A stretch of 64,000 nt of DNA. Origin: an uncultured virus (IMG/VR IMGVR_UViG_2871731064_000001) (lineage: Duplodnaviria; Heunggongvirae; Uroviricota; Caudoviricetes). The DNA is taken from the IMG/VR virus record IMGVR_UViG_2871731064_000001; one strand, written 5' to 3'. The notes under the pieces were generated by a model, which was not told the origin of the DNA, did not search any database, and saw nothing but the letters and a program-made list of their open reading frames with translations. The position numbers and the translations under genes were made by a program. Of the stretch, positions 3,897 through 24,131 are shown one piece after another; the first letter of the stretch is position 1; every line of letters begins with the position of its first letter.

Positions 3897-4103
3897 ATGG
3901 GGTTAGTGATTCTTTAATAATGGCTGGATCTATTGACCAGTGGATAATTTCACATAAGACATATTGAATTTATCAGCACGGTGGCTATAGTGTGCGCGCC
4001 GCTGAAGAGATCCAGCGGCCAGGCTTGGAACCCTGAAAAAGCATGAGAACTGGCACATTGTGCCTTCGGCGCTACCACGTCCGGATTACTCCGGGCGTAT
4101 CTA

Positions 4104-4181
4104 TGGTGGCGTTGGTGGGGCTACCTTCGGGTAGGCCGGTTTTCTTGTGCACCGGTAGTTCCAACCCTGTCAACGTCACCA
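4104..4181 (+). ncRNA. c4: c4-family antisense RNA (P1 c4 / P4 CI type)
   Basis: Closing stem 4104-4120/4165-4181, CTACC-TTCG-GGTAG hairpin, CCGGT-loop-ACCGG hairpin and unpaired GTTCCAA; complementary TTGGAAC and GCACAAGGA/GCATGAGAA sites lie both upstream and downstream. Confidence 0.85.
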
Positions 4182-4235
4182 CCCGGAGATTGGAACCTCC
4201 TGTAGTGACGCTTCTTTTCGCACAAGGAGCATTTC

Positions 4236-5872: not shown

Positions 5873-7570
5873 TCAGCTGCCGGGTGTCGTCACGTAACGC
5901 GCAAATGCCACCAGCTCTTCATGCGTCCAGCTGGCCGGATCGGAGCCGTCAGGCGCGGATTCATTCATCATTCCGCTGCCGCCTTCATCCTCCTGCGCAT
6001 CCGCTTTCTTCCTGCTCTTCTCAAATTCCGCCAGCATCTTGTCGAGCGTGCCGCCGTCCATTTTCAGCTGATCGCTGAACAGGTAGCGCATGAACGTGTC
6101 ATTTTCCGCCAGCTTGTTGTTGGCCTGTAGCGCGTCCATGACCTGCACCATAAGGGTAATGAAGTTGGCGCGGGCGTCCATTTCGCGGCTTTCTTCTTCC
6201 TGAATGGCGGTGTTCATGGAGTTAAACTGCACGACATAGGGCCGATCGTTAACCGGGTACACCTTGCCGTATTTGAACGCCAGGTGAATGTCGATCAGTC
6301 GGTAAATCATTTCCTGCGCACCCTGTCGCAGCCACTGCGCCCGGAGTGCCGCCTGAATGGCCGTCTGAATCCAGCCGCCTTCACCCAGTCCGCCAGCCAT
6401 CTGATCGGCCCAGCCCAGCATAGTTGAGTCTATACCGAGCGCGGCGCACAGCTGGCGCAGGTGAAACATCACGTCCTCAATGCCGGTAATGTCGGCGGGT
6501 ATCGACTGCGTATCAATCGTAATACCGTTTTTACCATCACCCATCACCGGGATCACATGGTTCATCACGGTTGGCATGGTGTTACCGTTCACGGCTTTTT
6601 TCTGAAGCGCTTCGCCATGGCGCTTAAGCGTCTGCGATACGGTGCGGGTATAGTTCGCGCCTACAACCGGATCGAGTGAGTTGGTAGTCAGGGCAATCAG
6701 GCGGTCAATTTTTGCGGCATTATAGCGCGTTGCCTTCAGCGCATTCAGCGCGCCGACCAGGTTCAGGAAGGGTTCATAGGCATGCGCCAGGAAGCTGGTG
6801 CCATAGTTCTGCGTCTCCGCAACCTCCTTATCTTCTTCCTCCGACAGCAGAGAGTAACCGCGATTCCCGGACGTCACAGGCTGAACGTTGCGCGTGGGCG
6901 TCCAGTACGGATTTTTCATCGGGACCAGTGACCACGGCGTAGACAGTGTGCGGGTATGGGTATCAGGTGCCAGCACGTAATCACCGCCAAAACCCACCAG
7001 CTGATCGCCTTTATAAAACTCTTGAATGAAGTAGGGCAGCGAGTAATAGCTATTTTCCAGACTGGTGATCCCCTTGCCGGTACGGGCATAGGGGCGGACA
7101 TAGGAGACGCCGAAAATCGCCATGGTCATAGCCAGCGACGGCAGATGCCGGTTAATCATCGCGCCGAGATCGTCCTGCAATTCTTTAGCCCGCGCCGTGC
7201 CTTCTGCGTCAGACGGATCAACCGGCACGATAGAGAACGCCAGACCGGTTTTTTTGTCCGGCGCGAGTGCGTGGCCAATGTGGATATTCAGTGCGGCTGA
7301 GCACGTCGGGCTGTTAGCCATTTCCTCCAGAATCGCATAGCGCTGCAGCCGGTCCAGTGGCAGCTCCGCGCCCAGGTAAAGACTGTCGCCGGCAGAGGTC
7401 ATTTCCCCCGCCTTCCCCTCGTTGTATGCCATTGCCGCCAGCCCGGAGCGAGAGACAACCACGTTTTGCCCGTTAGTCCAGGCGAGGCTTTGCGGTGCAT
7501 CTGCTGCAGCGCCCCGGAATGCCTGCCTCAGTGCGCCTAAAACAGACAATGCCTTTTTTTTAGTAGCCAA
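5873..7570 (-). CDS. prt: Portal protein
   Basis: 565 aa, divergent from darB and upstream of pro as in P1; GGLGEGG motif. Confidence 0.8.
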   Translation of the reverse strand: MATKKKALSVLGALRQAFRGAAADAPQSLAWTNGQNVVVSRSGLAAMAYNEGKAGEMTSAGDSLYLGAELPLDRLQRYAILEEMANSPTCSAALNIHIGHALAPDKKTGLAFSIVPVDPSDAEGTARAKELQDDLGAMINRHLPSLAMTMAIFGVSYVRPYARTGKGITSLENSYYSLPYFIQEFYKGDQLVGFGGDYVLAPDTHTRTLSTPWSLVPMKNPYWTPTRNVQPVTSGNRGYSLLSEEEDKEVAETQNYGTSFLAHAYEPFLNLVGALNALKATRYNAAKIDRLIALTTNSLDPVVGANYTRTVSQTLKRHGEALQKKAVNGNTMPTVMNHVIPVMGDGKNGITIDTQSIPADITGIEDVMFHLRQLCAALGIDSTMLGWADQMAGGLGEGGWIQTAIQAALRAQWLRQGAQEMIYRLIDIHLAFKYGKVYPVNDRPYVVQFNSMNTAIQEEESREMDARANFITLMVQVMDALQANNKLAENDTFMRYLFSDQLKMDGGTLDKMLAEFEKSRKKADAQEDEGGSGMMNESAPDGSDPASWTHEELVAFARYVTTPGS

Positions 7571-16834: not shown

Positions 16835-17130
16835 TGGGCCAGAATAAGCCATTTCACTATCATACGATTTGCTACATGGGTGATAACGGTAAGATGCGAT
16901 CCGGGGTTGTCCAGTTGGCCACACGTCAGATATCCCGTCAGGCGCTGGAGAACGTTCGGGCTACGCTGAGCTTTGACGAAAACGCAGTACTGGTCTCGCA
17001 TAGCTACCTGGGGCGGATGACGCAGGCAGAGTATGAGTCAGGCGATATCAAAGTACCCTCTGTATTGCTGAACGTATTGATGATCGTCACTGCTGCTGCC
17101 TTAGTCATAACGGCGTTGAAACTGCTGTAA
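16834..17130 (+). CDS. Hypothetical protein with a C-terminal membrane anchor
   Basis: Translationally coupled (TGATG); hydrophobic C-terminus. Confidence 0.7.
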   Translation: MGQNKPFHYHTICYMGDNGKMRSGVVQLATRQISRQALENVRATLSFDENAVLVSHSYLGRMTQAEYESGDIKVPSVLLNVLMIVTAAALVITALKLL

Positions 17131-17192
17131 TCCTTTGCTGGTGGCAGAGTCCGGAACAATGCCACCAGCTATCCCCCCTAAATCATTAATTG

Positions 17193-17213
17193 AAATCTAA
17201 GAAAACTCTTAGA
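17193..17213. promoter_or_regulatory. Putative bivalent C1 operator
   Basis: AAATCTAAGAAAACTCTTAGA, identical to 18593-18613; TCTAA-N8-TTAGA. Confidence 0.7.
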
Positions 17214-17272
17214 CAGTGGTCAATTTCGGGTTATCATCCGCCGCAAATAACACGCGGATCTGATAACACATT

Positions 17273-18562
17273 ATGACTACTCTCGCTCCACTCCAGCAGC
17301 TGCAAAATCTCCCTGAATGCAACGTTGATGACGATGTACTTCACCAGGCCTTTGTCACCGCCTACGGCCAGCTTAATTCCGTCCGTAAACGCCTGACGCT
17401 CGATGACCTGGAGCTGCGCCTTCTTGATAACTGCACTAATGCGCTGGAGCAGATCCAGATCGATATCGGTATGCGCCTCAATTATGAAGCGGATACCTAC
17501 AATCTGATGTTAGAAGCGCTGGAGCAGGTACAGCAGCAGCTGGCCGTGCAGTCCGCACTGCATAACGAAGTAACGAAAATCCGTCTCGATGCGCAGAACG
17601 CCATTGAAGAAGCCAGAGACGCGGCAAAAGAAAGCATGCTGGAAGCAGAGAACCGCGCAATCAGAGCGGAAACGAAGCTGCAGAATATGGAGTCAGCCCT
17701 GACGACCGCACAGCTGGCCCTAGCCACGCTGAATCAGGAGCACTCGCAGTATCGCCGTAAGCACCCTGAACGCCTGGCAACTGACCTGAACGAGCGGGAC
17801 AAAACCATTTCGCAAATGCGCGCTGACCGCAAAAAGGAAAGCGTTAAACGCCAGGACTTACAGAGCAAACTGAACATCGCGGATAAGGTTGTAGGCGATG
17901 AGCGCCGCCAGCGCGCTGAGACGGCTAACGATCTGCTTAAGACAACCGCGCTGTATAACCACCTGAAAGAGCGCGTCGATTTTCACGATGGCCGGGAAGA
18001 CGTGCAGCAGTTCCTGCTTCAGCTGCCGGACGGCTCCGGTGACGTGGGCTGCTATATCTACAACTTCCACTTTGGTCTGAGCGTCTTCCACGGCATCCGC
18101 GACGTCTCTATTGAGACGGCTGATTTCCATTTCCAGATCCGCACCGCGATGATGCTGGCAATGGACGTAGTGCCAGGTATATGGGGCAATCCGGTATTCC
18201 GCCTGCTGCCGGATCTTGAGCCGATGTGGGATACCGCTGTTAACGACGAGCTCCACGCACGGATCATGAAGCGCGTAGCGCAGGATTTCCCGCGTCTCCA
18301 CCAGCGCATTCTGGATGGCAAAGCCGCGCCGGTCTCTGAGCTGGCCATACCGACACGCGCCCTTAACGCACTGACTAAGGCCGGATATGAGACGGTTGCC
18401 GATGCTGGTGGCGAGCTGCCTGCTGAGCTGGCGAAAGTGAAGGGGCTAAGCGAGGCTTCTGTGATGGAGATCCGCGCTGCCGTGAACAGCTGGTGCATAA
18501 AATGGGCGAAAGCCAACGGCGATATTGAGAACATTACAAACCCGAAAGTAAAGCGCCGCTAA
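17273..18562 (+). CDS. Coiled-coil protein with a C-terminal HhH/alpha-CTD-like domain, P1 PmgS-like
   Basis: Long heptad region; ELAIPTRALNALTKAGYETVAD…LAKVKGLS pattern; N-terminus resembles P1 PmgS from memory. Confidence 0.6.
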   Translation: MTTLAPLQQLQNLPECNVDDDVLHQAFVTAYGQLNSVRKRLTLDDLELRLLDNCTNALEQIQIDIGMRLNYEADTYNLMLEALEQVQQQLAVQSALHNEVTKIRLDAQNAIEEARDAAKESMLEAENRAIRAETKLQNMESALTTAQLALATLNQEHSQYRRKHPERLATDLNERDKTISQMRADRKKESVKRQDLQSKLNIADKVVGDERRQRAETANDLLKTTALYNHLKERVDFHDGREDVQQFLLQLPDGSGDVGCYIYNFHFGLSVFHGIRDVSIETADFHFQIRTAMMLAMDVVPGIWGNPVFRLLPDLEPMWDTAVNDELHARIMKRVAQDFPRLHQRILDGKAAPVSELAIPTRALNALTKAGYETVADAGGELPAELAKVKGLSEASVMEIRAAVNSWCIKWAKANGDIENITNPKVKRR

Positions 18563-18592
18563 CTCTCATACACCTCTCTACATTCGCTTTGA

Positions 18593-18648
18593 AAATCTAA
18601 GAAAACTCTTAGATTTTCATTGCTTCATAACTCCGTTTTGTGTACATT
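18593..18648 (+). promoter_or_regulatory. Putative C1 operator with adjacent sigma70 promoter
   Basis: GAAAATCTAAGAAAACTCTTAGATTTTC inverted repeat, then TTGCTT-N17-TACATT. Confidence 0.65.
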
Positions 18649-18794
18649 TCTCCCCGCTGACAAGGGCATCACGACTCTATACAAAATCATGGTAGGCATT
18701 TGGCGGGTTAGGCATAACTGTCTGTTTAATCCGCGTTTTTTCACATATCAAAGTCTATTCCAGAGTAGGCTTTGCTGTGTGTGTAGGATTTTAT

Positions 18795-18819
18795 GCCCGG
18801 TAGTTTCCGGGCTTTTTTT
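18795..18819 (+). terminator. Intrinsic terminator
   Basis: GCCCGG-TAGTTT-CCGGGC-TTTTTTT. Confidence 0.75.
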
Positions 18820-18995
18820 CAGGTTCAGCCGTGAGCGCATCAAGGTGTGCTGACGGCTGAAACGGGGAAACGCTTCGGCAGCGAGGCAAACGCAATGCAA
18901 ATCTGGCAGGTGCCTCCACACCTATTTGTTACGCAAGCGGGCAGGTTGACCAGATACCTAAGTGTCCGCGCCGGGTATGCACCGGCAATTATTCA

Positions 18996-19068
18996 GCATG
19001 GGTAGCGAAGAGGCCGAACGCAGAAGTTGTTAAGTCCGCCGCCGGTTCAAATCCGGCCCCATGCACCA
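18996..19068 (+). tRNA. tRNA-like gene with intact acceptor, D and T arms and encoded CCA, but a defective anticodon arm
   Basis: GCATGGG/CCCATGC-A-CCA; GCCGG-TTCAAAT-CCGGC; GCG…CGC D arm; only 18 nt with no stem between the D and T arms. Confidence 0.7.
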
Positions 19069-19240
19069 GTTCGTAACGGGCCGCCCCCGGTTATTAGCTT
19101 TTTCCGGGTGTGTTATGAGTAGGGTGAACGGCAAGTAGCCCCTCCTGTCATGGCAGTGAACGCGGTTGATGGACTAATCCCGCGCATAGAACGCCCCATG
19201 AGGCTTAAACATGTTCCCGCCTGATCCTCGTAAGGGATCA

Positions 19241-19435
19241 CCATTTGTGAGCGCGCTGGTGCTTCTGTCGTTTTACTGGCGTTTGGCGAAAGATTACCTC
19301 TGTCAGCGCGCTCACAAATGGGGGAATGCGGCTATGCGCACGCGGGACGGAACAGTTACCTGACGTTTTGCAAATTCCTTTACATGACCCGTCCGTAGAT
19401 TCCGTATCGGACAGCTGGTGGCACCAGCCCCCCAT
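19241..19435 (+). ncRNA. Structured RNA module A (18-bp hairpin plus tRNA-like fold)
   Basis: Perfect inverted repeat 19241-19258/19304-19321; ATGGGGG/CCCCCAT stem stacked on GCTGG-TGGCA-CCAGC. Confidence 0.55.
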
Positions 19436-19546
19436 GCATTACACGTCAACACCAGGCGATGCCCTGTTTACTGGCTAATTTGGCTGGTGGCGGGGCAGGG
19501 TATCGGCAGACCTCAACACGCCGTGACTGCTGGTAAAGTCCAGCCC

Positions 19547-19781
19547 ATAACGGCGAGGACACTGGCAGGTGACTGAAAATAACACCTGGCGCGTGGTTGC
19601 TCAGTGTTCTCGACCGTTGTGGTGATCGCTTAAACACACCGTAGGAGTTGTGGATCTGGAATCCACGGGGCGAAAGCCTTGTCTGTGAATCAACACAGGT
19701 GGTCAGCGATGGGCTGCGAAAGCAAAGCGGGTTTAAGTCCTGCCTCATTGAACAATCGCGCTAACGGAAAACGGTCACAAC
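19547..19781 (+). ncRNA. Structured RNA module B
   Basis: ATAACGGCGAGGACACTG…CAGTGTTCTCGACCGTTGT hairpin; several short hairpins with GAAA-containing loops; GTTGTGG…TCACAAC closing pairing. Confidence 0.5.
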
Positions 19782-19811
19782 AACCCTTTTTAAACCTCAC
19801 CGGGGAACGCT

Positions 19812-20246
19812 ATGTTTGGCAAAATTTTTGGCAAGAAAGCAGCAGCAGCACGTCAGGAACTGAAGAAGATTGAAAACCGCGACCTGATGGAAGCGATCGT
19901 TGGCGGTTGCCTGCTTGTGGCTGCAGCTGATGGGTCTATCGATCAGTCGGAGCTGGACAAGCTGGATAAGCTGCTTCGTTCGAACGCCAACCTGTCGCAT
20001 TTTGGTCCTGAAATTACGCAGAGCATTACCCGCTTTAAAGAGCAGCTTGAAGCCGGTTTTCGCGTAGGAAAGAACAAAATCTTAGAAGAAATTCAGGACA
20101 TTAAAAACGACCAGAAAGAGGCGGTTGAAGTGTTCGTGAACATGATCACTCTGGCTGAGGCTGATGGTGATATCGCGCCGGAAGAAAAGAAAGTTATCGA
20201 AGAAGTTGGCCGTGTGCTGGGCCTGCGTTACGACGATTACGTGTAA
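19812..20246 (+). CDS. tciA: TerB-family protein, P1 TciA-like
   Basis: ENRDLMEAIVGGCLLVAAADG…AEADG.I..EE. Confidence 0.88.
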   Translation: MFGKIFGKKAAAARQELKKIENRDLMEAIVGGCLLVAAADGSIDQSELDKLDKLLRSNANLSHFGPEITQSITRFKEQLEAGFRVGKNKILEEIQDIKNDQKEAVEVFVNMITLAEADGDIAPEEKKVIEEVGRVLGLRYDDYV

Positions 20247-20410
20247 TGAAACTCCGTCTTTTCTTTGCCGCGCTGCTGCTTCTGCTGGCCATACTGGTGG
20301 ACTTCACCAGTAGGATCCTATCGGTAGGAGCTGATTTGGCATTAATCGGCCTGGCTATTTACGTCGCCATGCCTTTTTTAAAGTTCGCATTTAAGGCAGC
20401 AAAGAAATAA
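20246..20410 (+). CDS. tciB: Small hydrophobic TciB-like protein (54 aa, absent from the ORF track)
   Basis: Coupled to tciA (TAATG); MKLRLFFAALLLLLAILVDFTSRILSVGAD…. Confidence 0.75.
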   Translation: MKLRLFFAALLLLLAILVDFTSRILSVGADLALIGLAIYVAMPFLKFAFKAAKK

Positions 20411-20630
20411 ACGGCCAGTAACGATATGCCAGAGATCCCTGCTGGTGGCCGAAAGTGGGACATGTGGGTGCGGAGTCTGGCGTTTAAATGGGTTTCAACG
20501 CAACTGGGTTATCCGGTCAACACAGAATGTCATCCAGCCAGCGGACAAGTTGCTGCCATTACAGGTTGAGCGCCTGGGCGGTTAGTTCTGACAGCTGGAA
20601 TAGACAGCATTCCTCTACGAAGGACGCATT

Positions 20631-20759
20631 ATGTCGTTATCAGAATTTGCTGCAGAGCACCCGTTTCTCACCGTGATCTACGCGCTGGTGACCATCTATG
20701 CCATCGAGACGTTCATTAAGGCAGCAAGAGGCGGCAGGAAGAGGCAGCGCCGCAAATAA
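20631..20759 (+). CDS. 42-aa single-TM protein with a basic tail (absent from the ORF track)
   Basis: GAAGGA RBS; MSLSEFAAEHPFLTVIYALVTIYAIETFIKAARGGRKRQRRK. Confidence 0.6.
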   Translation: MSLSEFAAEHPFLTVIYALVTIYAIETFIKAARGGRKRQRRK

Positions 20760-20766
20760 GGTACAC

Positions 20767-20980
20767 CAACAGGAAAGAGCATTGATGCTTTGCGCAAAGC
20801 GCCATTGGACTAGGAATGGTCAGTGCTCTATCCGTTGTGGTGCATTCGTAGTTGCTGCTGCGATCGCAAGACTGGCCCCCGCTTCTTCAGTCGCGTACAC
20901 AGGGGTTAAAGCCGCCAGTAACCAGGTTGACCAGTCACTTGAGAGGTTATTTGCCGGGTATGGCACCGGCCACCACCAAC
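20767..20980 (+). ncRNA. Structured RNA module C (hairpin plus tRNA-like fold)
   Basis: CAACAGGAAAGAGCATTGA…TCAGTGCTCTATCCGTTG; TGGTG/CACCA stem on GCCGG-GTATGGCA-CCGGC; internal GACTGG/CCAGTC stem. Confidence 0.55.
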
Positions 20981-21004
20981 GTCACCAATTACTACAGGCA
21001 GAAT

Positions 21005-21400
21005 ATGAATCCGATTAAGCAGATTATTGTCGCACATGCTGTACCAGTCGCCGTCAGTCGCGTTATGACGAGCATTGATGAATATAAATTCCTTATTGAG
21101 GGCAGTCAGTCACAGGAACAGGTGATGCTTTCAGAAGCCGAACTTATGGCTAAGTATCTGCCGGTCGGTGATATCAGTCATTTGCCTGAATTTCTCCAGC
21201 GCGTCCATATTGAGCGCGCCCAGCTTGCGCACAGAGTCAGCAAACTAACTGCTTACATCAGCACGGCTGGTTTTCTGGAGCTGCACGACAATGACCGTCA
21301 CCTTCTGGAGCACCAATTAGATGCTATGAGTGCTTACCGCCGTATCCTGGATGAACGGATCGATAATCACGCAGGAAAGCTGCTGGAAAAGTTAGCTTAG
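21005..21400 (+). CDS. Protein with a C-terminal crAss001_48-like helical domain
   Basis: FLQRVHIERAQL..RVSKL..YI….F.EL…D..LL..QL.AM..Y..IL.ERI; start moved to the ATG at 21005. Confidence 0.65.
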   Translation: MNPIKQIIVAHAVPVAVSRVMTSIDEYKFLIEGSQSQEQVMLSEAELMAKYLPVGDISHLPEFLQRVHIERAQLAHRVSKLTAYISTAGFLELHDNDRHLLEHQLDAMSAYRRILDERIDNHAGKLLEKLA

Positions 21401-21611
21401 AATTAATTGAGCTGGTGGCCATTAGGGTAATTCGGGCAAAATTCATGACACCTGGCAGCCAGCTTATTTGGACACAAAGCGCATGAGTGACAGCACCTAC
21501 ACAAAGACCATCAGAGCTATGCAGTTTGCCATGTTTCACGGCCTGCTGAATGCCGGACTGTTTGCCGGTCATAAATGGCTTGTCGCGCAGCTGGTGGCGG
21601 GCTGATACAGG

Positions 21612-21747
21612 ACAACAGGTAAGAGCGCCTGCAACGTGCTTTTACCGTTGTGCTGTCGCTTAAGGGGAGTAGCCGCCGTTCCATTGAATAGCCGTAAGGC
21701 CTGATGGGGACAGACGGACGGTAGCCGGTTCGAATCCGGGCAGCACA
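21612..21747 (+). ncRNA. Structured RNA module D (hairpin plus tRNA-like fold with a canonical T-loop)
   Basis: ACAACAGGTAAGAGC…GCTTTTACCGTTGT; TGTGCTGT/GCAGCACA acceptor-like stem; CCGG-TTCGAAT-CCGG. Confidence 0.6.
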
Positions 21748-21887
21748 ATGTCATTACAGCCAACTGGCCACGCGCCGGCGCAGGCTTCAAATTATCGCCG
21801 TGCGTATCCCACGCCGGACTTAACCAGGTGAACTTTAATCACCGGCACCTGCCGGGGATTCTGCACGCCTACAGGAAGAGAAAACGC

Positions 21888-22136
21888 ATGAAAAAGATCG
21901 CACTGATGGGCGCATTGATGGGAAGTCTCAGCTGGGTAGCCCGCCGTCCGCCAACCGTTCCCGTGCCGCAGGTAAGAACATTGCTGGTGGGCGATACCCG
22001 GCCACCGGCGCAGGAAGAGATCGAACAGGGAATACGTCGTTTGGCCACAAGCATTGCAGAAGCACAGCAGCACTGGGCCGCAGAGAAGAGACGCAGACAT
22101 ACAGCGCAGAAGCGCAAACAAAAACGAGGCTACTGA
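21888..22136 (+). CDS. Hypothetical basic protein
   Basis: AGGAAGAG upstream of ATG; abuts the next gene. Confidence 0.5.
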   Translation: MKKIALMGALMGSLSWVARRPPTVPVPQVRTLLVGDTRPPAQEEIEQGIRRLATSIAEAQQHWAAEKRRRHTAQKRKQKRGY

Positions 22137-22138
22137 TA

Positions 22139-22723
22139 ATGATGACCGCTCAACAATTAAATGCCACGATCGCTATGTTCGCAGACGCCGAAGCTGACTA
22201 CGCAGGCGACTATATGGCACTTCTGGCGGTCATTGCCCGTCTTGGATACACCATTACAGAGACGTCCGAGACCAAAAACACCGGATATGCCGCCGTTATC
22301 AGCAAAAGTGGCCTGACAATGACCGGTTATGGCGAAACCCTGAACCACGCCGCCTGTGTCGCGCTGATTAAGTTGAACGATCTCATACTGCGTAATGAAG
22401 CGATGATTGAGACGGGCGAACTGAATTTCAGGCAGGAGCATGCACCGCTGGCCGTGGCACAGCTATGGCTATCTGAAGGCTGTAAGGTGGCACGGGAAAC
22501 ATGGGGGAAGGGAGTTTATCTCCGACTCAACAGAGGCGCGATGCGCGCCGCGCTGAAGGGAACAGACATGTACGGCGTACCGGCCCGTTACTTTGACTGC
22601 AGCCCGGAGACTACTGTCACGCAGATGCCTCAGCTTTTACTTATTGATGCCGAAAGGCTGACTGTCTCCGACTGGTCGCCTGCTTCTACCGATCTTCTCG
22701 CATGCGACTGGAAGCTGGTCTAA
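22139..22723 (+). CDS. Two-domain protein with a C-terminal DUF2829/Tad2-like domain
   Basis: LSEGCKVARETWG…WSPASTDLLACDWKLV. Confidence 0.72.
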   Translation: MMTAQQLNATIAMFADAEADYAGDYMALLAVIARLGYTITETSETKNTGYAAVISKSGLTMTGYGETLNHAACVALIKLNDLILRNEAMIETGELNFRQEHAPLAVAQLWLSEGCKVARETWGKGVYLRLNRGAMRAALKGTDMYGVPARYFDCSPETTVTQMPQLLLIDAERLTVSDWSPASTDLLACDWKLV

Positions 22724-23141
22724 TAGCGGCAATGATAATCAGTAGTCTGGACGTGACAGAGTAACTTTATGATTCAGAGTAGTTAGCCACCACCTGATAC
22801 ACGATCGCCGGGTGAATACCCTCATCCGGCACCCGGAAAACATTGCGCATCGTTCAAACTCTAAGTAACACATCCGGTTTATCCGTGATAATACAGCCCG
22901 GAACTATAACTTATTATGGCCCTACTGAAGGCCATTAAGAGTGCTGGAGTACACTGCCAGTACTGCGATCTTCACATCCTTATAAAGCCCACCAGCCAGT
23001 TTAGCCTTACGCCTGTCATAGCCAGAATCATCCTGAAAACCCATTCATACCTGCTAATAATGGCGATATTTACATCGTTCGCACTTGCTCGGATTACACA
23101 ATCCTTAGAATTGCTTGTAGTCAATTCAAGCGGAGCAGTAC

Positions 23142-23549
23142 ATGGAACAAAAGGTGAGCAGTATAGAGGTAGCCGATCTGTTAATACGCAGACGGGACTA
23201 CATGACTGTGGCCGAAGTCACTAAGCTGGTGGAAACTGAATACCCGCACTTAGTGGTGAATACCGGCATTATCTCCAATATCCTGCGCTCCTTTGTTCGT
23301 TCGCCGTTCGCACAATGCCGTGTACATCCCGACGCGTATCCCCGCCAGTATCGGCTGGAGGCCATGAACGGCTATATCTTCAAGGTACGCGGAAGAAAGG
23401 ATCTCAATTACGGTTCGCTGTGTGTGGAAAGCGCCACGAAGCAGGTTCTACAGAAAAAGGAAATGGAGCAAATGTCGGTGTGCGCAATGGCAAGGGAACT
23501 GATGGATATGTGCAGAAGGGGGAGAATAGAGAATGCCCCGCTCATGTGA
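23142..23549 (+). CDS. lpa: Late promoter activator Lpa
   Basis: EVADLLI…YPHL…ISNILRSFVRSP; upstream of pacA as in P1; operator-like CCTTAGAATTGC upstream. Confidence 0.7.
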   Translation: MEQKVSSIEVADLLIRRRDYMTVAEVTKLVETEYPHLVVNTGIISNILRSFVRSPFAQCRVHPDAYPRQYRLEAMNGYIFKVRGRKDLNYGSLCVESATKQVLQKKEMEQMSVCAMARELMDMCRRGRIENAPLM

Positions 23550-23570
23550 ACGGGGCTGGGATAATCAGGA

Positions 23571-24131
23571 CTATCCGGCGTTCTTTTTGCTAGCCTGAAG
23601 CAGGTTACGTGCTTTACCTGCTTTGGCCATTGACGGACTGCCCCATGCCTGTGGCTTATCATCTTCGTCCGAAGACTCCGATGTACTCCGGGCAGGAGCC
23701 GCGACAGGCTGCTCAGGCTCACTGGCAGTAGCTACCGGATCAGCAGGCAGGGCTTCTGCTGCTGGTGGCACTACTGACTCTGGCATAGCCTGTTCCGCCG
23801 CTGGTGGCGCTGACTGTACGGCTGCTGGCGCTGACGGAGCAGCAGCAACCGGCACGCCAGCGCTTTCACCCAGCAGAGCGCTGATCATGGTAAGCAGACG
23901 CTGCAGGCGCTCACGCTCAGACATTTTCAGGAACTTCTTTCCGTCCGTTGTCTGCAACAGTTCGATGACGGGACTTAAGCCCATTTCATCCAGCGCGTAG
24001 CCACTGCGTACCAGACGCACCAGGTAGCTACGCTTCGCCGCGTTGGTCTGTAACCGGTTATATTCATTCAGAGCAGCGCCGGTAAGTAACCCGTCGTCCT
24101 CCAGCCCACTTAATCTTAATACCTGACTCAT
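23571..24131 (-). CDS. ParR/StbB-like partition adaptor
   Basis: Directly downstream of parM; RHH-like N-terminus and Pro/Ala-rich disordered tail. Confidence 0.6.
   Translation of the reverse strand: MSQVLRLSGLEDDGLLTGAALNEYNRLQTNAAKRSYLVRLVRSGYALDEMGLSPVIELLQTTDGKKFLKMSERERLQRLLTMISALLGESAGVPVAAAPSAPAAVQSAPPAAEQAMPESVVPPAAEALPADPVATASEPEQPVAAPARSTSESSDEDDKPQAWGSPSMAKAGKARNLLQASKKNAG

Follow-up and report, generated by a model that had tools for sequence, protein, structure and literature searches.

The stretch of DNA analysed here, called the window throughout, comprises 64,000 nucleotides (nt) of an uncultured virus of the class Caudoviricetes (IMG/VR record IMGVR_UViG_2871731064_000001), and the locus under study is an array of RNA units interleaved with small genes at positions 18,824 to 21,748, upstream of a Tad2-like gene. 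Five units were distinguished (the first unit and units A, B, C and D), each consisting of a long hairpin and the module or body behind it; moreover, a tRNA-derived RNA (T1) and a structured spacer (spacer X), neither of them listed by an earlier sequence-only reading of this stretch, were found between the first unit and unit A. Overall, the stretch is a chain of real, conserved folded RNAs, each led by a long hairpin, and represents the local version of the little-studied leader of the P1 ban operon, not a wholly new system. The elements of the array are the following:

18824..18862, + strand, long hairpin of the first unit (-27.3 kcal/mol)
18863..18995, + strand, body of the first unit, with a conserved-loop hairpin and the hairpin GCCGG-GTATGCA-CCGGC (18970-18986)
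18996..19068, + strand, T1, tRNA-derived RNA
19069..19240, + strand, spacer X, structured
19241..19321, + strand, long hairpin of unit A, its base conserved and its apex variable or deleted in relatives
19317..19437, + strand, module of unit A, a cloverleaf of the STnc100/PasD type according to covariance models and covariation
19441..19546, + strand, hairpins between units A and B, including GCTGG-TAAAGT-CCAGC, weakly supported by one compensatory pair
about 19546..19622, + strand, long hairpin of unit B
19622..19785, + strand, module of unit B, closed by GTGATCG/CGGTCAC and holding five inner hairpins
20768..20838, + strand, long hairpin of unit C, with a variable apex
20834..20982, + strand, module of unit C, with closing stem GTTGTGGTG/CACCACCAAC and hairpin GCCGG-GTATGGCA-CCGGC
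21612..21652, + strand, long hairpin of unit D (ACAACAGGTAAGAGCG..CGTGCTTTTACCGTTGT)
21649..21748, + strand, module of unit D, tRNA-derived

To place the locus, the matches of the window were considered. These were Pantoea plasmids of 87-95 kb with 82-96% identity, with lpa, pacA and a pmgS-like gene (containing an RNA polymerase alpha-CTD domain) as P1-type genes, and the tciA gene of the window was 67.6% identical at the DNA level to that of P1 and P7. Because of the plasmid matches, the P1-type genes and the tciA identity, the array is considered to sit in a P1-like phage-plasmid. A total of about 30 related loci (plasmids, IMG/VR records and genome contigs, cited below by L numbers) were compared, and all units were detected by BLAST in 23-31 of them; most of these relatives were close, being mostly 80-97% identical. 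P1 was represented by two records, L004 (OP279344) and L164 (NC_005856), and P7 by L163. A megablast search of positions 18600-22000 against the phage collection gave no match, and tciA was the sole match when the same interval was searched in distant mode. Furthermore, literature searches on the P1 ban operon and dicF, on the P1 transcriptome and noncoding RNA and on phage tRNA decoys yielded no publication on these RNA units, and only unrelated imaging papers appeared under the name tciA.

All five long hairpins announced by the sequence-only reading were present at their positions, and each of them folded better than its shuffled versions, with z scores of -6.98 (18824-18862), -6.49 (19241-19321), -5.10 (19547-19622), -3.75 (20768-20838) and -5.18 (21612-21652); none of 200 shuffles equalled the native hairpin in any of the five cases. 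The proposed kinship of their arms, CAAC(A)GG..AGAGC / GCTCT..CCGTTGTG(G/C)TG, proved to be real and is not confined to the window: a conserved hairpin-module junction, ..GTGCTCTnTCCGTTGTGGTGA.., recurs in Pantoea as well as in the P1, Leclercia and Enterobacter relatives. Likewise, a closing stem combined with a 3′ hairpin was found in units A, C and D, as had been suggested. The modules behind the hairpins folded just weakly better than shuffles, with z scores from -0.8 to -2.7.

Covariation was measured against controls in units B and D. In unit B (20 sequences), 98.4% of the cells were paired compared to 37-57% in slid controls, and two-sided changes occurred in 10 of 73 pairs, a number reached by none of 500 shuffles; eight of these ten pairs belong to the long hairpin. 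Similarly, 98.2% of the cells of unit D (19 distinct sequences) were paired compared to 36-53% with slid partners, with two-sided changes in 6 of 42 pairs (1/500 shuffles equal), all six in the extended arm described below. For the first unit, units A and C and spacer X, a custom script without controls was applied to 16-19 distinct homologues and counted compensatory changes in 8 of 48, 2 of 43 and 0 of 43 pairs of the three units, respectively, and in five pairs of spacer X. By the same script, the long hairpin of the first unit held three compensatory pairs among 19 distinct homologues. Moreover, the helices of units B and D are rich in G-U pairs, which would be A-C mismatches on the other strand, and therefore the folded strand is the plus strand, which is also that of the genes. 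A coding alternative, consisting of minus-strand open reading frames (ORFs) of 65 and 100 amino acids over units A and B, was ruled out since both are broken in relatives, the 100-residue frame shrinking to 4-11 residues in 5 of 15 loci. By all these indications, the stretch is non-coding and structured.

The units are alike in build and do not form one family; covariation, which the sequence-only reading had named as a check, was found above controls in units B and D. A covariance model of the unit A module, run with filters off over 17000-24000, matched no other unit. A broader model (R2, 17 sequences of unit A type) recovered only unit A under the same conditions, and its score on T1 (4.7 bits, E value 1.6) is noise; there is therefore no statistical link from modules of the STnc100 type to tRNA or to the other units. 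An Rfam search over the array left DicF, C4 and STnc100 all unmatched, and weak matches to RyhB, anti-hemB, BjrC1505, mir-875, IRES_Bip and ybhL were discarded as being at chance level (E 1-8).

The closest known counterpart is the ban leader of P1 and P7, annotated (NC_005856, AF503408) with Obanab, P1ban/P2ban, a 'dicF-like region', trnA, trnT, tciABC, trnI and ban, all of them in one C1-controlled operon in the P1 record. The order of the 'dicF-like region', the tRNA genes and tciAB is the same in the window as in P1. Two long hairpins, each followed by a GGTGAATGC.. module, stand between trnT and tciA of P1, and a third one, with near-identical ACAACAGGTAAGrGCG arms, lies upstream of trnA; arms nearly identical to those of the unit D hairpin appear in P1 at L004 2630-2710. 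Furthermore, P1 and the window share an exact loop in the first unit (see below) and the genes tciA and tciB, which are flanked on both sides by tRNA genes in P1 and tRNA-like ones in the window; a palindrome stands ahead of them, an operator in P1 and operator-like in the window. On the other hand, ban does not follow the array of the window, where an 82-residue ORF, the Tad2-like gene and lpa are found instead (the rest of the window was not searched for ban), and the upstream gene is pmgS-like, while P1 has dmt. P1 also keeps three intact tRNAs (65-73 bits) at matching places, whereas those of the window are crippled. No hairpin-module unit is annotated in the P1 record, in which the predicted ORFs plp and upl cover them on the opposite strand. 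The earlier description of an undescribed system was thus too strong, as unit A falls into the STnc100/PasD family and the build is shared by P1 and P7; what is varied here are the known kinds P1 ban-operon leader, STnc100/PasD small RNAs and phage tRNA clusters. As a separate observation, the P1 records L004 and L164 differ by about 210 bp between trnT and tciA, which is roughly one hairpin-plus-module unit.

Within the first unit, a conserved loop of 22 nt, AGGTTGACCA-N4-CCTAAGTG (18943-18964), was found exactly in 33 of 168 loci, all 33 of them P1-like and including every Pantoea relative, P1 and P7, while no match is expected by chance in the window. The copy of P1 and P7 falls within the annotated 'dicF-like region', and the stem around the loop differs between P1 and the window by three compensatory pairs. 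Taken entire, the body of the first unit folds no better than shuffles (z -0.8). A loop beginning with AGGTTGACCAG.. and a hairpin GCCGGGTATG(G)CACCGGC are common to the first unit and unit C, and the second copy of the AGGTTGACCAG loop, in unit C (20924-20945), has three mismatches to the loop motif of the first unit. By analogy, the array may be compared to DicF of the E. coli dicBF operon (Qin prophage), which is released from a polycistronic transcript by RNase III and RNase E, and the P1 annotators gave the name 'dicF-like' to the matching region; the Rfam DicF model gave no match at E up to 10 in either the window or the P1 leader, and membership is not supported by the name.

Directly behind the first unit, T1 was matched by the Rfam tRNA model at 40.9 bits (18996-19065, cut-off 29), contrary to the expectation that Infernal would give no canonical hit; ARAGORN, as foreseen, called no tRNA in the window. 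In T1, the acceptor stem has 7 bp, GG occurs in the D arm and TTCAAAT in the T arm, and the 3′ end ACCA is encoded, so that the four tRNA (RF00005) hallmarks of acceptor stem, D-loop GG, TTCRAAT and 3′ CCA are all present. However, it has 18 nt where 21-22 are normal for the anticodon arm and variable loop (10 nt for the 13 anticodon-arm positions of the Rfam model), and the anticodon stem cannot form. The module of unit D scored 23.9 bits, under the same cut-off, and presents an acceptor stem, a D arm and a T arm with TTCGAAT, without an encoded CCA; its anticodon arm carries an insert of 39 nt forming a long stem, and its homologue in L003/L007 reached 45.9 bits. A 5-bp anticodon stem with a 7-nt loop is lacking in both. 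Of the tRNA likeness that had been proposed for the units in general, these two elements stood up to the statistical test and the rest did not, the tRNA model matching none of the other units at E up to 10.

The site of T1 is occupied in relatives by either of two forms between identical flanks, namely the 73-nt form of the window or a different tRNA-like form of 64 nt, which has a canonical D arm and misses the entire anticodon arm. A regular-expression search over 33 loci assigned 12 to the 73-nt form (window included) and nine to the 64-nt form, and 12 fitted neither. A fuller version of 84-86 nt was found in the Leclercia and Enterobacter relatives. Support for constraint on T1 is mixed, with one compensatory change in each form (the 64-nt acceptor stem in L002 vs. 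L003, and the 73-nt T stem in L036) against four variants with a weakened pair or D-loop G. A host tRNA was rejected as the source of T1, as no close host tRNA was found and just 21 nt of the T arm match. These anticodon-less, CCA-ended tRNA-like RNAs are the most intriguing and least explained part of the array. Acceptor/T-arm cores that are retained for processing enzymes and whose anticodon arm is missing or replaced by other RNA are known from the tRNA-like domain of tmRNA, mascRNA, the tRNA-miRNA units of MHV68 and the stable RNAs of the T4 tRNA cluster, and some tRNA-scaffolded RNAs form arrays beside hairpins. There is no sequence relation to any of these, and only two units of the array would qualify.

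Spacer X, of 172 nt, follows T1 and is the best-conserved non-coding piece of the region, with identities of 88-100% in the Pantoea relatives and 79-84% in the Leclercia/Enterobacter plasmids; no Rfam match was obtained for it.

The module of unit A consists of a 7-bp closing stem and four inner hairpins, TGCG..CGCA and GTCCG..CGGAC among them, with one stem bearing a variable loop of 41 nt and the 3′ hairpin GCTGG-TGGCA-CCAGC stacking on the closing stem. Its scaffold is nearly invariant, and one loop occurs in three versions among relatives, in agreement with the earlier idea of swappable inserts: scaffolds are kept and one internal loop is exchanged. The hairpin ahead of it has a different apex in L003 and lacks the apex in L005, and a C-G pair has changed to U-A.

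A covariance model (R1), for which ten unit A sequences were taken from the lineage of the window alone, scored 56.5-59.3 bits in P1, 46 in Enterobacter, 41 in Leclercia and 26 in second copies. It was also run on lambdoid STnc100 loci, obtained via a published STnc100 primer; with filters off, the STnc100 copy was matched in all ten loci (21.5-28.4 bits, E 7e-7 to 7e-5), and with default filters in two of eight at E up to 0.01. The Rfam STnc100 model applied to the homologues gave 36.4 bits in Leclercia (E 8e-5) and 33.9 bits in P1 (E 5e-5), under its cut-off of 47. Moreover, the closing stem and the last hairpin of unit A covary across three lineages. Because R1 matches genuine STnc100 and these stems covary across lineages, the module is placed in the STnc100 family and, judged from sequence and predicted fold, is a distant member of it; the first unit and units B and C showed no such homology.

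According to a preprint (bioRxiv 10.64898/2026.05.13.724894), STnc100 is related to PasD, a small RNA that was identified through Hfq RIL-seq and for which seed sequences have been predicted, Hfq binding and targets being known for PasD only. The likeness of unit A to STnc100/PasD comprises a closing stem of 7-8 bp, GAAU and four inner hairpins, the last with an (A/U)GGCA loop and stacked; in both, the inner loop varies between copies. Tandem copies also occur on the STnc100 side, where the lambdoid contig L045 holds three. In contrast, the copy of the window has no Rfam score at all and its P1 and Leclercia kin stay under the cut-off. Another difference lies in the surroundings, as the lambdoid STnc100 has its own AT-rich upstream region and a terminator (GC hairpin and T run), whereas both are missing from the P1-type copies, which lie within an operon behind a long hairpin. 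No promoter-like or terminator-like site of the kind that marks a free-standing gene was found flanking 19241-19437. In L045, the three STnc100-type modules lie on the minus strand (237-360, 495-621 and 751-852), about 250 nt apart, with different inner loops and an AT-rich region upstream of each, and L063 and L097 have two such copies each.

In a sample of 151 genomes of the order, R2 with strict filters and E up to 0.001 matched two, and the module is therefore uncommon in species-representative genomes. One of the matches (62.3 bits) is chromosomal and belongs to another genus of the same family (G072:C1:300828-300958, L171), and it is the sole one besides a related plasmid. The STnc100 model run on the nearest genome and virus record gave sub-threshold scores of 22 and 19 bits, located elsewhere on the chromosome.

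As for the remaining modules, two of the inner hairpins of unit B have GAAA loops and one is T-arm-like (GCGGG-TTTAAGT-CCTGC); no Rfam family matched this module at E up to 10, and it is left unclassified. The module of unit C is 90-99% conserved and folds with a z score of -1.13. C4 RNA, which is present in the same window (4099-4186, 84.2 bits), was also considered as a relative, being a phage small RNA with a 5′/3′ closing stem that comes from a longer transcript and has a hairpin ending in ..TGCA-CCGG, as in the first unit and unit C; C4 of P1 is a product of RNase P. Nevertheless, the C4 model (RF01695) matched no unit and nothing in 17000-24000, and C4 acts as a cis-antisense within immI, whereas the RNAs of the array have no known target. 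Separately, the 11-mer CAACGTCACCA at the 3′ end of C4 RNA (4171-4181) recurs at 20977-20987, on the boundary between unit C and the crAss001_48-related gene (20981/20982, inside the 11-mer), with about 0.03 such matches expected by chance.

The genes and other features that lie between and around the units are as follows:

18593..18616, no strand assigned, operator-like palindrome AAATCTAAGAAAACTCTTAGATTT, with a second copy at 17193-17216 before the pmgS-like gene
19812..20410, + strand, cargo genes tciA (TerB, Pfam 3.6e-15) and tciB (DUF3927, 1.8e-10)
20411..20607, + strand, non-coding tail of 197 nt after tciB, occurring alone in relatives without tciAB and without an Rfam match
20631..20759, + strand, ORF of 42 amino acids, hydrophobic with a basic tail, separated by 8 nt from the unit C hairpin behind it
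21005..21400, + strand, cargo gene related to crAss001_48 (Pfam 8.8e-18)
21468..21605, + strand, ORF of 45 amino acids, ending 6 nt before the unit D hairpin, annotated in relatives as an ORF of 40 amino acids
22139..22723, + strand, Tad2-like gene downstream of unit D (Pfam 4.2e-11)

Pfam confirmed the neighbouring TerB, DUF3927, crAss001_48 and Tad2-like genes as they had been read, and the 42-residue ORF, a 'hypothetical protein' in relatives, belongs to no Pfam family. Cargo blocks come and go at fixed points beside the units. Among the 27 loci with both anchors around the point after unit B, tciAB (845-851 nt) was found in nine, 24-25 nt in ten, 147 nt (a tRNA) in three, 232-236 nt (the 197-nt tail alone) in five and 323 nt in one. 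The tail occurs without tciAB in L032 and L034, and after a tRNA-Gln in L021. Behind unit C, where both anchors were present in 26 loci, the 488 nt with the crAss001_48-related gene were present in two (the window and L020), other cargo of 434-450 nt in six, and 8-73 nt in 18; moreover, cargo of 1.2 kb lies inside or beside the unit C hairpin in three loci (L003/L007, L038). A natural recombinant was observed in L024 (7288-7448), which has lost the whole interval between the unit B hairpin and the unit D module, so that the two meet exactly at CCGTTGTG; the conserved junction can therefore serve as a recombination joint.

Two further observations concern these points. At the place of tciAB, an 84-nt tRNA is found in L003/L007 (2486-2569) and L039 (7512-7595), which ARAGORN calls an ochre suppressor (anticodon TTA), and L021 holds a homologous tRNA-Gln (TTG) at 7458-7539. 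Five Chi sites (GCTGGTGG) in one orientation appear within 2.2 kb (19414, 19483, 20441, 21411 and 21590, + strand), one of them coinciding with the 3′ hairpin of unit A, where relatives show GCTGGAGG.

A single operator-controlled transcript had been proposed, and the layout of the locus agrees with it: the stretch is co-oriented and gene-poor, no sigma-70-like promoter or terminator was found by scanning 18820-22000, an operator-like palindrome lies ahead, and the P1 homologue is annotated as C1-controlled. As no internal promoter or terminator was found and the start codons of the cargo genes lie close to the modules (about 25-30 nt past their ends), the units probably belong to one transcript. 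The palindrome AAATCTAAGAAAACTCTTAGATTT had two matches in the window at up to three mismatches, compared to none expected in 100 shuffles, and its copy at 18593-18616 is placed like Obanab, the divalent C1 operator of P1, so that a repressor may, by analogy, bind there. The -10 element near it is weak, and no promoter passed the scan. The arms of the hairpins also contain TGCTCT, the core of the P1 C1 operator ATTGCTCTAATAAATTT.

Between the palindrome and the array, the segment 18620-18745 holds a terminator-like hairpin (18703-18734, followed by T6) directly behind the operator-like site; in P1, too, the 'dicF-like region' ends in a terminator, some 190 nt downstream of P1ban. The next segment, 18752-18820, resembles a short small-RNA gene with a strong terminator (GCCCGG..CCGGGC and T7), and its single-stranded part, TTGCTGTGTGTGTAG, is similar to the conserved core of RprA. 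Its counterpart in Enterobacter (L009 3894-3996) scored 63.4 bits with the Rfam RprA model, under the cut-off of 70, and the segment of the window had only chance-level RyhB-type matches in Rfam, on the terminator; it may be a phage-borne mimic of RprA.

The reading that we prefer is that the array represents the structured leader and intercistronic spacers of a repressor-controlled accessory operon, the counterpart of the P1 ban leader, and that one long transcript would bear the chain of units, each with a long hairpin and a closed multi-helix module. Host endonucleases would cleave this transcript. RNase III would act at the long hairpins, and RNase P would cut the two tRNA-derived modules at their 5′ ends and might also cut at acceptor-like closing stems; the products would be stable small RNAs and, for the cargo genes behind the units, mRNAs of their own. 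We give about even chances to such processing of a repressor-controlled polycistronic transcript, its cleavage in particular being deduced. As the P1-type copies of the unit A module have a long hairpin instead of an upstream region and terminator of their own, processing would be needed for their release. This module could then act as a base-pairing small RNA of the STnc100/PasD type whose variable loop sets the specificity, and the first unit and unit C would contribute the conserved loop of the P1 'dicF-like region'. The tRNA-derived RNAs may act mainly as processing or stability signals, a role that fits their having kept the acceptor stem, T arm and D/T elbow and lost decoding. Finally, the hairpin-module junctions may double as joints for homologous recombination, by which cargo and modules would be swapped. 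What was observed comprises the folded structures and how far they are conserved, the links to known families, the variation in cargo and a single recombinant joint, whereas co-transcription, each of the cleavage steps and all trans-acting functions are inferred.

Expression data touch this reading lightly. In one seed metatranscriptome run, contigs covered 19202-19436 and 19767-20981 joined to 21456-21639, which is weak as evidence of expression because it reports presence only and the library may hold DNA; in X10, a part without coverage need not be silent, nor do the ends of contigs mark those of RNAs.

Several points weigh against the processed-operon reading. A transcript starting at the operator-like site would meet two strong terminator-like hairpins (18703-18734 and 18795-18812) before the array, and read-through therefore has to be assumed. 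The hairpin stems of the first unit and unit D have about 16 bp, which is short for RNase III. Encoded CCA is absent from all modules besides T1, and the loops of their 3′ hairpins are not T loops (the T arm TTCGAAT of unit D being noted), while the T1 variants L022, L030, L033 and L034 weaken a D-loop G or a T-stem pair. For unit A of the window, the Rfam STnc100 model (RF02076) gave no match at E up to 10, and the custom script counted two compensatory pairs there and zero in unit C. Antisense activity had also been suggested by the sequence-only reading, and the search for complementarity of the loops and inserts returned no target: nothing longer than 13 nt (E above 0.07) was found in the whole window, and the complement of the first-unit loop, with up to three mismatches, hit only the plasmid's own copy in the nearest host genome. 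Furthermore, the 'RNA' runs X1, X3 and X4, from one organism, yielded one whole-plasmid contig of 98,191 nt each and are uninformative on transcripts. The RNA ends, the cleavage and the transcript itself are predictions.

Other explanations of the same observations were weighed against this one. The units might be cis-acting switches, in which the 3′ strand of a hairpin (..GTTGTG..) pairs either with its own 5′ strand (..ACAAC..) or with the 3′ end of the module (..CACAAC..), and translation of the small ORF upstream picks the fold and with it the processing, stability or translation of the cargo. Overlapping alternative pairings exist in units C and D, whose hairpins begin 6-8 nt after the stop of a small ORF; one module's 3′ strand is the 5′ strand of the next hairpin in Leclercia, and cargo starts close behind the module ends. 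However, the hairpin and the closing stem stand side by side in the consensus fold of unit B, units A and B have no small ORF ahead, the units are unchanged where the downstream point is empty, and the STnc100 relatives are free-standing genes, so we hold a switch to be unlikely. A decaying tRNA cluster, with pseudogenes as its tRNA-like pieces and neutral spacer kept by linkage or recent descent as the rest, would account for the three intact tRNAs of P1 at matching places and for the intact tRNA-Met(CAT) and longer T1 of Leclercia and Enterobacter; T1 is conserved no better than its flanks, some of its variants lose pairs, and the relatives compared are close. This explanation is nonetheless rather improbable in view of the covariation above controls in units B and D, the first-unit loop, which matches exactly in the Pantoea phages and in P1 and P7 on a stem that differs by compensatory changes, the unit A scaffold, which Pantoea and E. 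coli phages have in common despite exchanged loops, and the fact that spacer X is the best-conserved part.

A different proposal, raised by the sequence-only reading, is that the tRNA-like RNAs are decoys which soak up tRNA-attacking host defence enzymes or replace their targets. T1 keeps the acceptor stem, the elbow residues and the encoded ACCA end with its anticodon stem gone, two unrelated tRNA-derived sequences of 73 and 64 nt without a working anticodon arm share one site, each with a compensatory change (in the T stem and the acceptor stem, respectively), and the Tad2-like and crAss001_48 genes adjoin. On the other side, the known anticodon nucleases require the anticodon loop that these RNAs miss, stoichiometric action would need very high expression, the test of tRNA likeness was passed by just two elements, some changes among the T1 variants are weakening ones, and a literature search for phage tRNA decoys without an anticodon arm gave no paper on the subject by its title, which makes decoys an improbable function. 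Finally, the inverted repeats could act at the DNA level, as binding sites in double- or single-stranded DNA or as recombination sites, with RNA folds being incidental; the ends of units and the conserved junction are also where the cargo boundaries and the L024 joint fall, and the arms hold the C1 operator core TGCTCT. Such sites are very improbable, since the frequent G-U pairs are strand-specific, the arms covary and follow no single consensus, the spacer between them varies from about 7 to 45 nt, and plain homology explains the L024 joint. The processed operon leader is hence the reading retained.

A more far-reaching idea, to which only a small chance is given, is that phages of the P1 family turn tRNA genes into general RNA scaffolds, retaining the acceptor/T-arm/elbow core that is processed and protected by host enzymes and dropping the anticodon arm or replacing it with exchangeable inserts, that STnc100/PasD RNAs are tRNA-descended, and that the CCA-ended, anticodon-less forms are sponges for defence enzymes modifying or cutting the acceptor end of tRNAs; the termini of STnc100/PasD, GCAUGGUG..CACCAUGCA, resemble GCAUGGG..CCCAUGCA of T1. 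If tRNA-scaffold sponges for acceptor-end enzymes were real, the early operon would hold a class of RNA-based counter-defence, while the result would be mainly useful annotation if the RNAs are simple processing signals.

P1 is a workhorse of bacterial genetics, and yet about 1-2 kb of its early ban operon carry no annotation beyond tRNAs, a 'dicF-like region' and, on the opposite strand, two doubtful ORFs. In P1 and the phage-plasmid family of roughly 90 kb, this region is a chain of conserved folded RNAs, one of which is tied to the STnc100/PasD small RNAs of Shiga-toxin-type prophages. The exact coordinates given here bear on whether a phage releases regulatory RNAs from an operon in the manner of tRNAs, on the purpose of tRNAs that lack an anticodon arm, and on the units as a hot spot for the exchange of accessory and anti-defence genes.

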